A stretch of DNA of 64,000 bases from a phage. Shown here piece after piece: positions 11,345-54,561 of the stretch (its first letter is position 1; the number at the start of each line of letters is the position of its first letter). The notes under the pieces were generated by a model. That model worked only from the letters and a program-made list of their open reading frames with translations. It did no database searches and was not told where the DNA came from. The position numbers were made by a program, and so were the translations under genes. The stretch lies in the sequence record PZ496581.1. One strand, 5' to 3'.

Positions 11345-12523
11345 TTAGAAATATTTTTTGTATGAATTGATTACATTTTGGTCTACATCATTATCAATTT
11401 GTGCGACAAGATAAGAACTGATTTCAACTTCCTGAGGAGCTGCTTGAACTAAATCAGAGTTCAGATATTCACGAATCCAAGGATACGGATGCTTGGTCGG
11501 AGCATCAGTGATTGGGCATGGCAAACCACACTGTTTCATACGAGACACAGTCAAGTAATCAACAAAAGCACACATACTCTGTGTATTGATACCTGGGCAT
11601 GTACCGTCTTTAAAGAGGTGTGCAGCCCATTCCTTCTCTTGACTATTTACTTCCATAAAAATGTCAACTGCTTCTTGTTCACATTCTTTAGCAATTTGAA
11701 CCCACTCATCGCCATCAGTACCAGATTGAAGTTGACGGATGATGTACTGAGTACCCTTGAGGTGGAGTTGTTCGTCACGAGCAATGAACTTCATAATCTT
11801 TGCATTACCTTCCATAATTTCCATATTTTTATGGAAGTTGAAAGTACATGCAAATGATACGTAAAAACGAATAGCTTCTAAGGCGTTGATAACATGCAAA
11901 CAGAGGTAAAGAGATTTCATTAGCTCACGCTTCCAATATGTCTCATGCTCAATAGCATCTTCAATAACGTCTTCGTCTGCATTAATTTCTTTTTGGTATT
12001 CGATATCAGCTTTAGCATTTTCCCAATAACGAGTTTTAACCAAGACATCATCGTAATAGCGACCAATAGATTCAGCGCGTTTCATGATTGCTTCGTCTAA
12101 TACAATCTCATCAAATACCTTAGATGGGTCCGTATAAAGATTTCGCATAATATGAGTATACGAACGAGAGTGAATAGTTTCACTGAATGTCCATGTTGCA
12201 ACCCACGTATCTAATGAAGGGTCAGAAATCAGTGCCATAAGTACCGCAGATGGGGCCCTGCCTTGGATAGAATCTAATAATGATTGATACTTAAGATTGT
12301 TTGTAAAGATGTCCTGTTGGAACTGAGGAAGCTTATTGAACTGCGCAGAGTCCAACATCAAGTTTACCTCTTCGGGACGCCAGAAAAATGACAAGGATTT
12401 TTCTATAAGTTCTTCAAAAACTTTATGACGCTGAATATCATACCGTGCGAGGCCAAGACAAGAACCAAAGAACATCGGTTCATTCAAAACATCGACTTGT
12501 TGTGTGTTAAAAACTGTACTCAT
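11345..12523 (-). CDS. nrdB: Ribonucleotide reductase small subunit (392 aa), intronless
   Basis: Continuous ORF of full NrdB length, adjacent to nrdA; no intron-sized gap. Confidence 0.85.
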   Translation of the reverse strand: MSTVFNTQQVDVLNEPMFFGSCLGLARYDIQRHKVFEELIEKSLSFFWRPEEVNLMLDSAQFNKLPQFQQDIFTNNLKYQSLLDSIQGRAPSAVLMALISDPSLDTWVATWTFSETIHSRSYTHIMRNLYTDPSKVFDEIVLDEAIMKRAESIGRYYDDVLVKTRYWENAKADIEYQKEINADEDVIEDAIEHETYWKRELMKSLYLCLHVINALEAIRFYVSFACTFNFHKNMEIMEGNAKIMKFIARDEQLHLKGTQYIIRQLQSGTDGDEWVQIAKECEQEAVDIFMEVNSQEKEWAAHLFKDGTCPGINTQSMCAFVDYLTVSRMKQCGLPCPITDAPTKHPYPWIREYLNSDLVQAAPQEVEISSYLVAQIDNDVDQNVINSYKKYF

Positions 12524-12578
12524 TATATTTTCTCACTTAGTTATTAACTCATCCATGAGTAAATTATAATCAAAAGTC

Positions 12579-14834
12579 TTAAAGCTTACAAGCAGAACAA
12601 TCTTCAGCTTTAGGTGTTTCTAATTCATAGTCATCTGTACCTGACCCATCACGAGTGTTATGATAGTAGAGATTTTTTCCGCCAAAGTACCAGAAGTAAA
12701 GCAGATCGTCAAGCATTACTGACATTGGCACTTTACCTTTCTCAAACACTGCAGGGTCATAGTAAGTATTAGCAGAAGCAGATTGGCACACCCATTTCAA
12801 CATGATAGCAACTTGGGTCAAATAAGGTTTATTACCTTTCTTAGCAAGTTTCCACGCATAGTCGTAAAGACTCATGTTATGTTCTATATTAGGAACAACC
12901 TGACGGAAGTTGCCTTCTTTAGATTCTTTAATACTCACTGGACCACGCGGCGGTTCAATCCCGTTTGTAGAGTTTGATACTTGACTGCTTGACTCACAAG
13001 GCATGAGTGCAGACAACGTTGAGTTACGAATTCCATGTTCTTTGAGTTCAGCTCGAAGTTCTTCCCAATCACATACGTAGTTCGGGGCTGCGATTTGGTC
13101 AATCTTTTTATTGTACCAGTCGATAGGTAATTCGCCTCTAGACCATTTAGTGTCTGAATAATACTCGCAACATCCTTTTTCTTTGGCGAGTTTGATTGAT
13201 GCTTTGATAAGGCCATATTGCAATCTCTCAAACAATTCATGAGTCAAATCGTTAGCGTCTTCATATGAAGCAAAGTTAGAAGCTAACCATGCAGCATAGT
13301 TCGTAACACCAACACCAAGATTACGACGCTTTTTAGCTTTTAAAGCTTCTGGAACCGGATAATCTTGATAGTCTAACAGGTTATCAAGTGCACGTACTTG
13401 TACTTCAGCAAGTTCATTAATTTTATCTTGGTCTTGCCAATCAAATTTATCCAATACAAAAGCAGATAATGTGCATAAACCAATTTCAGCATCAGGACCA
13501 TTCACATCATTAGTTGGAATAGCGATTTCACAACATAAGTTACTCTGACGAATTGGAGCTTTTTCACGAATAAATGGAGTGTAGTTATTCGTGTTATCAA
13601 CAAACTGTGGATAAATTCGAGCGGTGCCAGAACGTTCAGTCATGAACAATTCAAAGAGTTCTAGTGCTTTGATTCTTTTCTTTCTGATTGTCGGGTCTTT
13701 TTCAGCTTTCTCATAAAGCTCACGGAATTTATCTTGATCTTCAAAGAACGAGTAGTATAGTTCGCCTGACATTTCATGAGGGCTAAATAAAGTAATATAA
13801 TCATTTTTACCAAGACGTTCCATCATAAGGTCATTAATCTGAATTCCGTAGTCCATATGTCGAATACGGTTTTCATCCACGCCTTTGTTATTTTTCAGAA
13901 CTAATAGGTTCTCTACTTCTAAGTGCCACATCGGATAATACGCTGTAGCAGCACCACCACGAATACCACCTTGAGAACAAGATTTTACTGCAGTTTGGAA
14001 ATGTTTCCAGAATGGAATAACACCCGTATGTCGAACTTCACCCATACCGATCTTAGAACCTTCTGCACGAAGCATACCAACGTTGATACCGATACCAGCT
14101 CGTTTAGAAATATATTCAATAATTGATGCTGAAGTTTTGTTAATAGATTTTAACGAATCACCGGCTTCAATAACTACACAACTAGAGAACTGGCGAGTCG
14201 GAGTACGAGCACCTGCCATAATTGGAGTAGGCAATGAAACTTGATGAGTAGAAACGGCGTCATAAAAACGAATAATATGTTTCAAACGGTCATGAGTTTC
14301 GTCTTGGTGTAAGGCCATGCCAATAGCCATGATAGCAAACTGTGGAGTTTCATAAATCTTCCCAGTTGTTTTATCTTTAACTAGATATTTTTCTTTAAGC
14401 TGCATAGCACCAGCATAAGTCAGGTCAAAGTCTCGTTCATGTTTAATCTGTGAATCGAGATAAATGATTTCTTCTGCTGAATATTGAGACAACAGCTCAG
14501 GGTCATATTTGCCTTCATTAACACAGTAAGAAATATGGTCGATAAAAGCAGGCGGTTCAAACTGCCCATATACATCTTTACGAAGTGCAAACATTAGCCC
14601 TTTGGCGGCGACATACTGATAATCAGGTTCTTCGACAGAAATCGAGTTAGCTGCAACTTTAATACAAATCTTCTGAATATCTTTGGTGCTCATACCATCG
14701 ACAAGATGGGTCTTAATTTCTTCGTACAATTCATATGGGTCAATTTGTGTTCCTTCACATTGCCAAGTTAAGACTTGAATAATTTTCTGTGCATCAAAAT
14801 TTTGGGATACACCACTGCTCTTAGTTACTTGCAT
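12579..14834 (-). CDS. nrdA: Ribonucleotide reductase large subunit (751 aa)
   Basis: Class I RNR length and active-site region NLCCEIAIPT; T4 gene order. Confidence 0.9.
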   Translation of the reverse strand: MQVTKSSGVSQNFDAQKIIQVLTWQCEGTQIDPYELYEEIKTHLVDGMSTKDIQKICIKVAANSISVEEPDYQYVAAKGLMFALRKDVYGQFEPPAFIDHISYCVNEGKYDPELLSQYSAEEIIYLDSQIKHERDFDLTYAGAMQLKEKYLVKDKTTGKIYETPQFAIMAIGMALHQDETHDRLKHIIRFYDAVSTHQVSLPTPIMAGARTPTRQFSSCVVIEAGDSLKSINKTSASIIEYISKRAGIGINVGMLRAEGSKIGMGEVRHTGVIPFWKHFQTAVKSCSQGGIRGGAATAYYPMWHLEVENLLVLKNNKGVDENRIRHMDYGIQINDLMMERLGKNDYITLFSPHEMSGELYYSFFEDQDKFRELYEKAEKDPTIRKKRIKALELFELFMTERSGTARIYPQFVDNTNNYTPFIREKAPIRQSNLCCEIAIPTNDVNGPDAEIGLCTLSAFVLDKFDWQDQDKINELAEVQVRALDNLLDYQDYPVPEALKAKKRRNLGVGVTNYAAWLASNFASYEDANDLTHELFERLQYGLIKASIKLAKEKGCCEYYSDTKWSRGELPIDWYNKKIDQIAAPNYVCDWEELRAELKEHGIRNSTLSALMPCESSSQVSNSTNGIEPPRGPVSIKESKEGNFRQVVPNIEHNMSLYDYAWKLAKKGNKPYLTQVAIMLKWVCQSASANTYYDPAVFEKGKVPMSVMLDDLLYFWYFGGKNLYYHNTRDGSGTDDYELETPKAEDCSACKL

Positions 14835-19621: not shown

Positions 19622-19735
19622 TACCTTTTATTTAGATTATTTAATTTATTTACAGTTGGTTGCTACGACACTAGTTGGTTGCTACGACACTTATACCTCG
19701 TAGCTGGTATGATTTATTTATAAAGTAATTTTAAC
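19622..19735 (-). promoter_or_regulatory. Gene 32 5' leader: candidate translational operator (structured element plus AU-rich tract)
   Basis: Stem GCUACGA/UCGUAGC, then CAACCAAC, then AU-rich UAAAUAAAUUAAAUAAUCUAAAUAAAAGG before the AUG; contains a 19-bp tandem duplication. Confidence 0.5.
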
Positions 19736-31465: not shown

Positions 31466-31476
31466 GGAGGTATATT

Positions 31477-40162: not shown

Positions 40163-42378
40163 TTATTTGGCCGCTTCCACGGCCTTCATGAATTTAACGA
40201 TTTGAGCGACCTGTTCTTTGGAAAGAGTACCACGTCGTCCCATGTATTCTGACACAATATGATAATTGGTTTCGAATTCAATAACCATTTTATCATCATT
40301 ATCGTAAGCATTATCTTTAAGCTTATCGAAAATTTTAGCGCACAATTCTAACTTCCTGTTCAGGTCTCTGTTATCAGCACCTGCGAATCGATTCCATCCC
40401 CAGCGATTATTTACTGTTGAGAGTTTTGCAAAGTCTTTACTGATTTCTTTGTTCTTAGAGCTAAAATACTTACTAAGGAAGTTAAGCTCTTCGTTACGAG
40501 TAATATGATTCAAATAAGGCTGTGCTCTACGACTTGGTGATACATACTCATCATAATCCACTTTATCAATTAGCGTAATATAGTCGTTAATTGATTTTTC
40601 GAACAAGCATTCTACTTCACCAAGTTTACGAACTTTCTTAGCAATCTGTGGACGGACTACAGTGAACTCTTTAATACCTGACAAATCAGCAATACGGGTC
40701 AAGAAATTGGAGTCATAGTTCAACCAACCTTTATCTGCGTCAAGACATTCAGCATTAGAACGATTACGAACTATAGCATAACCTTGGATTTCATCAGCTT
40801 CACTCGCTGGAATAAAGAGATCTTCCGATACCCAAACATCGTTTTCGTTCTTGAAGAAACGATGGGCACTCGGTGATTTAGGGCGAGGCCCATTAGAACG
40901 AGTCTTGACTTCAATCCATGGCTTAACGATTTGTAAAAGCTCTGAAGTCTTGTACATGTTAATGTTGTCGCCATCAAAGATAACTTTAAGGCGTTCCAGA
41001 AGTTTCATTGCATCTTCGTCTGTAGGGTCAACGAATAGTACGCTTTTACCAAAACCGCGTGGAACTTTACCGGTTAATTTAACCTCGTCTTTAGACATTT
41101 CAATTGAATTAAGAGCTCGCATTAATGGAACGCGTCCCTTAACGTCGTCAATAACAATTTCAACGTTTTTAATGTTAATGCCAATCAGGCTATTAATTGA
41201 AATGGTTGTTGATGAGCTACCACTTTCACGAATACGACGAAGACGAGGGGATTCAACGATATCGTATACGACGCCAAGATTACACCACTCAGGCCCCATT
41301 TTAAAACGTTTGTACAACTCGGAATAAGTTAGTTGTTCTTTAGAGTATTTCAGTGATTCAATATTAGACCCGGCCTTTTCCATGTATTTACGAGCGGTAT
41401 AGCCAAGAGAATCAATTTCACGGAACACATGACGTGGGTATTTACAATCAATCCATTTCTTAGAATCTTCAGCGAACAATTTAGCATCGATTTCTGCAAC
41501 ACGTTTATGGATATTTGCTACTGTACGTTTATCAAATGACAATGCTTCACGAGACGGGGCTACATCTAGTTCACCCATAGGGAATTTAATATAAGCTGTA
41601 GTGCATCGCGTCATCATCCATGTTTGTTCTTTAATAACACTTCCGATTGGATATACAATACCACCATAAACAGCCATGATATTACCACGTTCACCCCATG
41701 GAGCTTCCTTGGCCAAATATACATCGTCAAATTCAGGAAAGTATTTAATATCTTTAACACCACGAACTTCTGCAATATCACCTAGAGGACGCATAACATA
41801 TGCAATTTCAGATGCGAACTTTTCAAAATCTTCTGGGTTAACCGGTACAACTACTTCTACACCCGTACGGTCATCGGGGCCCATCTTATCTACAAAGGTT
41901 GGCTTAATTTGTGGACCTGTGTCATCTTGGTAGATTACGTAACCACGAACTTCACCGTTGTGATAAGACGTAAGGTTAAACGTATCGGTATATGCTAGTG
42001 GAGCTTTAGAGCCGAGTCCGAATCCACCAATGAAATCGTTACTCGATGTTTTAGTTGAAGCAAAATATGAGTTATAGATTCCTGGCTCTTCGTCATTACC
42101 TCGAATGGTGAAATCACTCATACCAGGACCAAAGTCTCGAACTACAAAACGCGGGTCTAAACGACCTGGAGCCTGAACAATAAACTTATCAGTGCAACCA
42201 TTAAGAATTTGTCCATCGATACAGTTTGTGATTAATTCACGTACACAAGCCAATTCTTTGTTTGTATAAAGGTCTCATTAGACAAAATCTTATAAACTTT
42301 GCTATTGCCTTGAATAGTGAATGCTGTGCTCTTACCGCCTGAACCAATAATTGTTTCTTTAGCCGTTTCAATAATCAT
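40163..42378 (-). pseudogene. rIIA: rIIA with broken reading frame: 48-codon N-terminal ORF (42232..42378) plus 696-codon remainder (40163..42253) in another frame
   Basis: N-terminus MIIETAKETIIGSGGKS...KILSN then frame break at gaga (plus tctc 42273..42276); the downstream frame reads DLYTNKELACVRELITN...DFGPGMSDF...GGFGLGSK (GHKL-like). Confidence 0.6.
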
Positions 42379-42683: not shown

Positions 42684-43784
42684 TTACGCTGTGAAGATTT
42701 TATCCCACATCGCAACAACTGCATCTCGGTTATACTTCTTCCATACTGCTTCAGCACGTTTAACTCGAGCTTCGTATGTGTCAGTGAATTCTAATACAGC
42801 TTTTGTGTAAAGCGCAACTACTTCTTTCTTAGGAGTAGAGGAATCAATTTCTACACGCACAGTATCTGGGTCATATTCGAATGTCGCGTGCGGATAATCC
42901 TTAAAAACTAACTGGATTACAGGGACACCTTTAGAGATGGCTTCAATAGAACTATTCTCTACCGTACCTGTGTCAGGACATGTATTAATAAGTGCTTTAG
43001 CTGTTTTAAGACGTTCCATGATTTCACTGTGTGGAGCATCAATAATAACAGGATATTTAGCTGGTGGTGCCCATTTGCTTGGACAATAACCAATACCATT
43101 TTCGCCTAGTGCTTTAATTGCTTCAAGAGCAACATCAGTGCGACGCATTTTAGTGTCATAACGTTGAGCACTAATAATCAAATCAGTTGCTGGGAGAACT
43201 TCTGGCTTTTCAGTCAAACAAATAACCGGATAATCTTCGGCTTCAAACAACGGATTTGCTCGCCAATAATCATAATCAATTTTGTCAGTCAGACCTGAAG
43301 TCATATAACAATATTTGCGTTCAAATTCACGGAAGGCTTTAGTAGGAGCATAACTCTTACCACCATTCTTATGAATTTGAATAGTCTGGTCCCAAATTTG
43401 AACAATGCCACGAGATACCGGTTCAAATGGTGTTGCCATAAAATTCTTATGAACTTTAGAGAGACCTGCGTCTTTAATTGCCTGAACGGTTAGTTTAGTC
43501 GGTTCCATAGTAACAACAAAATCGTATTCATGGATGCCGGCTAGTTCAACAATCTTACGAGCCATAGTATAACTCATACCTAGACTGAATTTAGTCAGAT
43601 GACCAACAGGATGGTGTGTAACTTTCCAGTCACCAAACGTGTCATTATCAAAGCCGATATAATCAATATCAGCACCGATGGACACAAGATATTTCAACAC
43701 ATTTAAATGTACTGCTTCAAGACCACCTTGTACACGGTCAGGATTAAATGGGACTGCACGAGATGGGATAAACATAACTTTCAT
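42684..43784 (-). CDS. Putative GT-B-fold glycosyltransferase (366 aa)
   Basis: N-terminus MKVMFIPSRAVPFNPDRVQGGLEAVHLNVLKYL and C-terminal E..A.....PVI block typical of GT-B retaining glycosyltransferases; between 39 and rIIA.1, where T4 has none. Confidence 0.55.
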   Translation of the reverse strand: MKVMFIPSRAVPFNPDRVQGGLEAVHLNVLKYLVSIGADIDYIGFDNDTFGDWKVTHHPVGHLTKFSLGMSYTMARKIVELAGIHEYDFVVTMEPTKLTVQAIKDAGLSKVHKNFMATPFEPVSRGIVQIWDQTIQIHKNGGKSYAPTKAFREFERKYCYMTSGLTDKIDYDYWRANPLFEAEDYPVICLTEKPEVLPATDLIISAQRYDTKMRRTDVALEAIKALGENGIGYCPSKWAPPAKYPVIIDAPHSEIMERLKTAKALINTCPDTGTVENSSIEAISKGVPVIQLVFKDYPHATFEYDPDTVRVEIDSSTPKKEVVALYTKAVLEFTDTYEARVKRAEAVWKKYNRDAVVAMWDKIFTA

Positions 43785-45694: not shown

Positions 45695-45708
45695 AGGGCC
45701 TAAGCCCT
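45695..45708 (-). terminator. Hairpin plus U-tract upstream of gene 39
   Basis: agggc-ctaa-gccct followed by UUUUU on the minus RNA. Confidence 0.4.
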
Positions 45709-46134
45709 TATTTAAATTTAATTTTCTGAAGTGCATCAATTGCAGCCAAACGCCCTTGTTCACTTTTAACTGTAATGACCACATCGCCTGATACGATCAC
45801 CGAACCATCAACAAATTCTATAGAGCCCTTTTTTGAAATCGACAGCTGTATCTGGTTCCGGAACTTCTTCAAAGAATTTAAATTCTGCACCATAAAGCAG
45901 AATATCACCTTGCATACTATGAATAGTTCGGCCATAATCGCCTACGGCTTCTACAGCAATCATCGAAACACCGTAACCAATCATCTCTTCCACAATAAAA
46001 TCTTTGGACAATAAAGTAGTATGCAGATTAGTATTAAGACGTTTACCAGTCGTATTAAGAATTCTCAAGAAATTATCTTCCTGTCCTTTGATAATACGAT
46101 ATTTCTTACCAACTTCAAAACCTTTAAAAGCCAT
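45708..46134 (-). pseudogene. Apparent single gene (~143 aa) split into two overlapping ORFs by a frame change at a homopolymer run
   Basis: ORF 45808..46134 ends 8 codons after the A6 run (plus T6 at 45829..45834); ORF 45708..45935 carries the protein-like C-terminus GSIEFVDGSVIVSGDVVITVKSEQGRLAAIDALQKIKFK in the +1 frame. Confidence 0.4.
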
Positions 46135-54495: not shown

Positions 54496-54561
54496 ATTGT
54501 TCTCCTCTTGAGTAAGTAAGATATCTTAACACAGTTTTTAGTGGTTGTAAACTGTAGAAAC

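Follow-up and report, generated by a model that had tools for sequence, protein, structure and literature searches.

A duplicated GA dinucleotide interrupts the rIIA reading frame in a Mosigvirus genome segment

Frameshifts in the rII genes are textbook mutations of phage genetics. On E. coli B, T4 without functional rIIA shows rapid lysis, and lambda RexAB excludes such phages (10.1101/2025.10.21.683753); moreover, rII deletions became fixed during the laboratory evolution of T4, which abolished growth on a lambda lysogen (eLife 2022, PMC9391042). Wild-type Tevenvirinae including Mosigvirus are insensitive towards RexAB while a T4 rII mutant is sensitive, and modern isolation hosts often lack rexAB, by which the selection for rII is removed (BASEL, 10.1101/2021.03.08.434280). 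Moreover, RIIB is sensed by a CARD-gasdermin defence, and T6 mutants escaping from it become RexAB-sensitive (10.1101/2023.05.28.542683). A characterised rII mutant of a Mosigvirus was not found in the literature searched. Here, we describe an rIIA gene of this genus that is split into two reading frames by two additional nucleotides, and we weigh whether this lesion is a mutation of the phage or an error in its sequence record.

The rIIA locus and its additional dinucleotide

The window, i.e. the whole 64-kb stretch of DNA that was analysed, has 37.7% G+C and 0 ambiguous bases and derives from the genome of a Mosigvirus (Straboviridae), an RB69-like T-even coliphage. Its nearest public relatives are APCEc01, JM17, mar005P1-type phages and NRG-P0074, with approximately 97-98% identity over 25 kb. 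The nucleotide identity over the rIIA coding sequence amounts to 90.9% with RB69 and to 99.5% with NRG-P0074; the latter phage was considered as a sister genome and rejected, being one more mosaic relative of about 98% identity. The gene order rIIA.1 - rIIA - rIIB (Table 1) matches that of JM17, moskry, APCEc01 and T4. Both pieces of the split gene are recognised by the profile of PHROG 612 (RIIA, in T4 an inhibitor of lysis and protector of membrane integrity), the 48-aa piece at positions 1-36 (E=2.9e-7) and a 696-aa piece at positions 44-724 (E=9e-207), and the repaired 737-aa protein can be aligned end to end with T4 rIIA (725 aa), with 342/737 identical residues (46%). Profile, T4 alignment and gene order hence all agree with the identification as rIIA that an earlier note had made from the sequence.

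An rIIA gene is expected to form a single uninterrupted ORF of about 725-746 codons. The window instead contains a 48-codon ORF and a separate frame of 703 codons, therefore it carries an rIIA gene with a disrupting lesion and not an intact member of the family. The short ORF starts with the ATG at 42378, encodes MIIETAKETIIGSGGKSTAFTIQGNSKVYKILSN followed by the out-of-frame part ETFIQTKNWLVYVN, and ends at the TAA at 42234-42232, as the earlier note had described. The remainder lies in the +2 frame (...GTC TAA TGA GAC CTT TAT ACA AAC AAA GAA TTG..., DLYTNKELACVRELITN) and continues to the natural stop at 40165-40163. In tblastn, residues 35-737 of the JM17 rIIA match 42274-40166 at 99.7% identity. 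The earlier note had correctly placed the rest of rIIA in this frame directly behind TAA TGA, but its count of 696 codons is obtained only when starting from the TTG at 42253, while the open frame comprises 703.

Table 1. Features of the rIIA region and other positions in the window that bear on the lesion.
Feature	Position	Strand	Basis or remarks
19-nt tandem duplication	19655-19692		perfect; missing in three relatives
TA duplication, private	31471		in Shine-Dalgarno-to-ATG spacer
rIIB, intact, 315 aa	39206..40153	-	starts 9 nt downstream of the rIIA stop; own AAGGAA ribosome-binding site
rIIA remainder, +2 frame, 703 open codons (D35-K737) + stop	40163..42274	-	tblastn, PHROG 612
MotA-box-like middle-promoter match (TGCTTA...N...TAAAAT)	40287..40310	-	in rIIA 3' end, ~135 nt upstream of the rIIB start
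Truncated rIIA 5' ORF, 48 codons: 34 native (M1-N34) + 14 out-of-frame, then TAA	42232..42378	-	PHROG 612
TTG (wild-type Leu42), theoretical reinitiation codon	42251..42253	-	in rIIA frame, without Shine-Dalgarno pairing
GAGA, dinucleotide GA repeated in tandem (+ strand: TCTC)	42273..42276	-	2-nt gap in aligned relatives
The same GA duplication, as private indel	42273		in rIIA
rIIA.1, intact, 66 aa	42391..42591	-	Pfam PF24210 T4_RIIA1, E=2e-30; directly upstream of rIIA; relatives' annotations
Second broken gene, 141-aa ORF, PHROG 622	46134-45708		split by one extra C at 45826-45828
+C, private	45826		in the 141-aa PHROG 622 ORF
-A, private	54520		in AA pair

The break results from a tandem duplication of GA at codon 35. 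The minus strand reads TCT AAT GAG ACC in the rIIA of the window and TCT AAT GAC C in the Mosigvirus relatives (about 97 sampled), i.e. owing to the extra GA, GAG ACC stands where the wild type has GAC (Asp) as codon 35, and the frame is displaced by +2. With the motif TAATGAGACC at 42280-42271, GAGA is found at 42276-42273, where the earlier note had located a 2-nt insertion. The wild-type site AATGACC is thereby changed into AATGAGACC, and neither of them includes a homopolymer. A nucleotide alignment with four relatives displays a clean 2-nt gap (TAAT--GACC) between almost identical flanks, and a compensating second-site indel was not detected in this alignment, in which each frame agrees with the relatives as far as the GA. 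All 40 of the 40 best Mosigvirus records are 2 nt shorter than the window across rIIA, and the gene has exactly 2,214 nt in 57 of 57 full-length records, which were sampled over the whole ranking of 156 Mosigvirus matches, compared to 2,216 nt here. The comparison with closely related genomes that had been proposed in the earlier note thus gave about 97 relatives with a continuous rIIA that is 2 nt shorter. The insertion is a deterministic feature of the sequence and not a statistical one, and it has the form of a classical rII frameshift, an indel not divisible by three within rIIA with a stop 14 codons further on. Removal of one GA restores a single ORF as previously proposed; it encodes 737 aa, a length similar but not identical to the 725 aa of the T4 protein with which it had been equated.

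Predicted consequences for RIIA, RIIB and phage growth

Translation from the normal ATG yields a peptide of 48 residues, 34 native ones followed by 14 nonsense residues, before the stop. The remaining 703 codons are intact but devoid of a usable start, such that functional RIIA would probably not be made. Among the 34 retained native residues, 16 are invariant across Mosigvirus, Tequatrovirus, Dhakavirus and Gaprivervirus, and the pattern of conservation indicates strong purifying selection on this N-terminal part. A Pfam search of rIIA returned no family at E<=0.01, and a PDB sequence search gave neither a RIIA structure nor an entry linked to a RIIA ATPase assay. When a profile of the first 300 residues, built from four sequences, was compared with PDB sequences, the N-terminal ATPase domains of the Hsp90 family were found with a best E-value of 6e-4; the top matches were all Hsp90, GRP94 or HtpG, and rIIA 18-142 aligned to Hsp90 8-147. 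The aligned elements are the helix-1 motif, the E..N..D helix, DxGxG and, as a GxxGxG-like element, GGFGLGSK. This likeness to the Hsp90/GHKL N-domain is remote and is used here just to place the break within the fold. According to the profile alignment, the break falls in the loop between helix 1 and the E..N..D ATP-binding helix (ELITNCID), and the lost or disconnected segment would comprise the first strand and the first helix of a GHKL ATP-binding domain similar to that of Hsp90.

Translational restart is judged unlikely to rescue the protein. The TTG at 42253 is the sole ATG, GTG or TTG in the rIIA frame ahead of the stop of the upstream ORF, and for its duplex with the 16S 3' end an energy of +2.4 kcal/mol was obtained, compared to -2.9 to -8.9 kcal/mol for nearby native starts. 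The first in-frame ATG (42121) sits within the conserved DFGPGM motif, past the ATP-binding helix, and initiation there would drop this helix. A ribosome-binding site was not found at any start codon near the 703-codon frame. Because the TTG is devoid of a Shine-Dalgarno sequence and the ATG lies beyond the ATP-binding helix, functional RIIA appears unlikely. Taken together with the N-terminal conservation and the Hsp90-like domain, the lack of a restart codon with a Shine-Dalgarno sequence implies that the lesion should be null.

Full-length RIIA could still arise if the ribosome changed frame at the duplicated GA-GA within TCTAATGAGACCTTT, either by a +2 slip of tRNA-Glu from GAG to the overlapping GAC, by a -1 shift or by a hop similar to that in gene 60, which would make the break leaky or even programmed. 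In this regard, the duplication does generate overlapping GAG and GAC codons, such that a tRNA slipping by +2 could pair again through the first two bases, and translational bypassing is employed by T4 gene 60, whose annotation places it in the same neighbourhood. The leakiness of some classical rII frameshift mutants also counts in favour of recoding. However, the insertion is missing from all sampled relatives, each of which has a continuous ORF, so that it cannot be a conserved programmed signal. Furthermore, the site contains neither an X XXY YYZ slippery heptamer nor a homopolymer, the zero frame offers no rare or stop codon beside the site at which the ribosome might pause (the next codon is ACC), and a matched pair of take-off and landing codons was not found around TCT AAT GAG ACC TTT. 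Any slip would be expected at background efficiency. A programmed frameshift or bypass was rejected, given that the lesion occurs in a single genome and lacks a slippery site, and recoding in any form is regarded as extremely improbable. A contingency locus was likewise rejected, because phage contingency loci are homopolymers of at least 6 bases (10.1101/2025.10.21.683753) and the GAGA site has none of this length.

If the duplication is a null allele of rIIA, the neighbouring rIIB is probably still expressed. It is intact, passes the comparison with the APCEc01 rIIB in the CDS audit described below, and its start has a Shine-Dalgarno energy of -6.2 kcal/mol, so that it may be expressed from the ribosome-binding site of its own and from a putative middle promoter inside rIIA. 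The MotA-box-like match in the 3' end of rIIA, which is a match to the consensus only, could render rIIB expression independent of rIIA translation; since 29 such matches were observed in the window versus 18.7 expected, a single one is no more than suggestive. By analogy to T4, the phage would then behave as an rIIA mutant. Lysis inhibition would be altered, with plaques of the rapid-lysis type on B-type hosts, growth would be normal where the host is devoid of rexAB, and lambda RexAB would exclude the phage. The predicted failure to plate on lambda lysogens is an extrapolation from T4, and it is consistent with the RexAB insensitivity of wild-type Tevenvirinae and the sensitivity of the T4 rII mutant. 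One might go further and regard the duplication as a selected allele, i.e. a real null mutation that was retained because loss of RIIA was advantageous on the isolation host, with escape from an RII-sensing defence as a possible route (compare CARD-gasdermin and RIIB, 10.1101/2023.05.28.542683), and which could be made leaky by +2 re-pairing of tRNA-Glu on GAG/GAC. We consider this combination very unlikely; if true, it would represent a natural polymorphism in the rII trade-off outside T4.

A recent mutation or an error in the record

The age of the event can be judged from its distribution and from the state of the remaining gene. A 40-mer centred on the insertion, designed such that each 28-nt megablast seed must contain GAGA, had 0 matches in 50,697 phage records and 0 in 20,395 E. 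coli replicons. The exact 28-nt junction pattern, with a known T/C polymorphism allowed, was absent from IMG/VR, the GTDB species genomes and the JGI metagenomes, and exact-product look-ups of the 696-aa, 652-aa and 48-aa rIIA products and of the truncated product of a second broken gene found none of them on record. As these look-ups and the five DNA collections gave nothing, we know of no independent assembly showing the GA insertion. The rest of rIIA contains two private substitutions, both synonymous, and none that is nonsynonymous, while the relatives have 1-5 nonsynonymous private changes each. The absence of the junction from five public collections and the undecayed state of the gene hence indicate that the GA event is either very recent or artefactual. 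An old pseudogene was rejected, because the 703 remaining codons form an open frame that shares 99.7% identity with JM17 and is free of nonsynonymous private changes.

The earlier note had left the choice between a genuine rIIA frameshift mutant and an assembly error, and this alternative still stands for an insertion that is private and lies at neither a slippery site nor a homopolymer. In order to place it within the quality of the entire record, the whole window was compared with the annotated CDSs of JM17 and APCEc01 in an end-to-end ORF test. Intact ORFs were obtained in 149 of 165 comparisons, and two genes are frame-broken in 64 kb, rIIA and the ORF of PHROG 622. The other exceptions comprise JM17 homing-endonuclease insertions that are missing here (nrdA, nrdB), stop shifts by 1-3 codons and one divergent gene. 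Since the window contains just one further frame-broken gene, the assembly is not generally error-ridden. In that gene, CC on the + strand became CCC beside a T6 run, a change that is private within the phage collection searched. When private short indels were counted in an alignment of eight genomes over positions 31,000-54,800 of the window (about 24 kb), four were found in our phage (Table 1) versus 0-2 in each of the seven relatives. The window thus has the highest number of the eight and sits at the upper end of the group, yet it is not riddled with indels.

These data can be read in two ways. According to the first, the phage possesses a normal rIIA of 2,214 nt and the extra GA exists in the deposited consensus alone, owing to a sequencing, base-calling or assembly error. 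This explanation fits to the private nature of the insertion and to the excess of private indels, and an artefact in an otherwise pristine rIIA without private nonsynonymous changes would look identical to a recent mutation. Moreover, the +C at 45826, which breaks another gene, and the -A at 54520 resemble homopolymer-length errors. Modification of T-even DNA degrades nanopore base calling, which also counts for an error. The DNA of T-even phages is heavily modified, with arabinosyl-hmC in Mosigvirus (PMC13390438), and among the causes of frameshifts given in a phage annotation guide, sequencing error comes first (PMC8785237).

However, several observations do not support an error. Leaving aside rIIA and the 141-aa ORF, homing endonucleases or natural variation of the ends account for the exceptions in the CDS audit, and the window contains 0 Ns. 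Homopolymer-length errors are typical of long-read and flow-based platforms, to which a dinucleotide duplication in the non-repetitive AATGACC does not fit; it would be an atypical platform error. In addition, mar007P3 and GADS24, both sequenced elsewhere, have private tandem duplications of 2 nt as well, and the duplication in GADS24 breaks the same 141-aa PHROG 622 ORF, in which mobillu carries a private 3-nt deletion. Because this ORF tolerates real lesions in GADS24 and mobillu, its break in the window need not be an error. Altogether, an error in the record is a serious possibility, albeit a tentative one.

According to the second reading, the GA duplication is a real, very recent loss-of-function frameshift of rIIA that arose during isolation or propagation of the phage, and this we regard as probable. 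It is favoured because the event is a dinucleotide tandem duplication in non-repetitive sequence and not a change in homopolymer length, and because independently sequenced relatives privately carry the same class of event. The TA duplication at 31471 together with the 19-nt duplication (Table 1) suggests a real mutational spectrum of the duplication type. Furthermore, rII is dispensable on hosts without rexAB, which likewise counts for a real mutation. Collectively, the evidence tilts modestly towards a real and very recent mutation.

A real mutation would not have to be spontaneous, since the same sequence might stem from a knockout of rIIA by design or by a mutagen, for instance a marker allele or a frameshift of the acridine type. 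The rII region is a classical marker locus, acridine- or topoisomerase-mediated frameshifts of T4 include short tandem duplications, and the insertion creates a BsaI site (GGTCTC). However, the window has about as many BsaI sites as expected by chance (15 versus 14.3), hence the new site carries no signal. A stop codon or deletion would be the normal design of a knockout, the remaining private indels are located in an intergenic spacer and an unrelated accessory gene with no sign of design, and a search of the literature for a paper on such a construct found none. Deliberate or mutagen-induced origin is therefore considered highly improbable compared to a spontaneous recent event. In either of the two main readings, the lesion is a very recent ordinary knockout or a sequencing error and not a new mechanism.

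Relation to described rII alleles

The duplication raises no new biological question; it matters mainly for the quality of the record and for the users of the phage, and it is worth flagging to the holder of the phage or the curator of the record. If it is real, the isolate is an rIIA mutant, and neither its plaque morphology and the timing of its lysis nor its host range on strains with lambda or rexAB would be those of the wild type, a point of relevance to host-range work and to cocktails for phage therapy. An error, in turn, would call for a correction of the record, lest rIIA be annotated as two genes or as a pseudogene.

Compared with the intact rIIA of other Mosigvirus members (JM17, APCEc01, NRG-P0074, RB69), the locus has the same flanking genes and 90.2-99.5% nucleotide identity over the CDS, however, these phages possess one ORF of 2,214 nt and 737 codons where the window has 2,216 nt in two frames. 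The T4 rIIA contingency locus, an A6 tract (10.1101/2025.10.21.683753), is likewise turned off by a frameshift, and reversion by slippage would be possible in principle at the GA site as well. However, reversion at the T4 locus exceeds point mutation about 10,000-fold, whereas the GA site has two GA units only, and hypermutable reversible switching is not expected there. The closest counterparts are the classical T4 rIIA frameshift (r) mutants of Benzer, Crick and Brenner, with which the allele shares the gene, the gene order and the kind of lesion, a short insertion followed by an early stop, as well as the expected trade-off, rapid lysis of E. coli B versus sensitivity to exclusion by lambda RexAB (10.1101/2025.10.21.683753, PMC9391042). 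It differs from them in that it belongs to Mosigvirus and not to Tequatrovirus, comes from a deposited genome and not from a selected mutant, is known from sequence alone and does not lie at a homopolymer hotspot. The GA duplication is thus a newly found allele of a very well known kind.

A second broken gene and small duplications

The break in rIIA is accompanied by a second one in the window, in an ORF of the family PHROG 622 that lies directly upstream of the topoisomerase large-subunit gene. The ORF is split by an extra C at 45826-45828 (CC to CCC on the plus strand), adjoining a run of six T, and no second instance of this change was found in the phage collection searched. Two further relatives are also altered in this ORF, GADS24 by its own independent 2-nt insertion and mobillu by a private 3-nt deletion, i.e. 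one seen in no other genome compared; hence, the gene appears to be dispensable.

Table. Features of the window
Feature	Position	Strand	Remark
nrdA and nrdB	about 11849-14834		both continuous
Perfect 19-nt tandem duplication, GTTGGTTGCTACGACACT-A/T x2	19655-19692		intergenic
Private TA dinucleotide duplication	31471-31474		Shine-Dalgarno-to-ATG spacer
MotA-box-like middle-promoter consensus, TGCTTA N13 TAAAAT	40287-40310	-	consensus match
rIIA N-terminal about 140 residues	42277-42378 + 41950-42274		profile-level similarity to Hsp90/GRP94/HtpG
366-aa ORF	42684-43784	-	between rIIA.1 and topoisomerase gene
141-aa ORF, PHROG 622	45708-46134	-	frame-broken

The TA duplication makes the spacer, which reads GGAGGTATATTATGG in the window versus GGAGGTATTATGG in eight relatives, 2 nt longer in front of a 183-aa tail-fibre assembly/gp38-like gene, itself followed by the holin gene. 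The 19-nt duplication is situated between the genes for the ssDNA-binding protein and the helicase loader, and the close relatives APCEc01, JM17 and NRG-P0074 lack it.

The rII region

At the profile level, the rIIA N-terminus resembles the GHKL-type ATP-binding domain of Hsp90, GRP94 and HtpG, and the similarity takes in helix 1, the E..N..D helix and the motifs DxGxG and GGFGLGSK. At E<=0.01, Pfam offers no model for this stretch. The MotA-box-like match lies within rIIA, at the gene's 3' end, and rIIB starts about 135 nt downstream of it; window-wide the pattern is modestly enriched, with 29 matches compared to 18.7 expected from shuffling. The 366-aa ORF occupies the place in which a second putative DNA arabinosyltransferase is encoded in Mosigvirus phages (PMC13390438); its annotation is 'glycosyltransferase' in NRG-P0074 and, in the BASEL phage ChristianSchoenbein, 'putative hmC-arabinosyltransferase'.

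Homing endonucleases

In JM17 and NRG-P0074, homing-endonuclease genes split or flank nrdA and nrdB, whereas both genes are unbroken in the window. Moreover, NRG-P0074 carries a homing endonuclease between the topoisomerase large-subunit and glycosyltransferase genes, where the window has none. These differences from the two relatives are presence/absence polymorphism of mobile elements.
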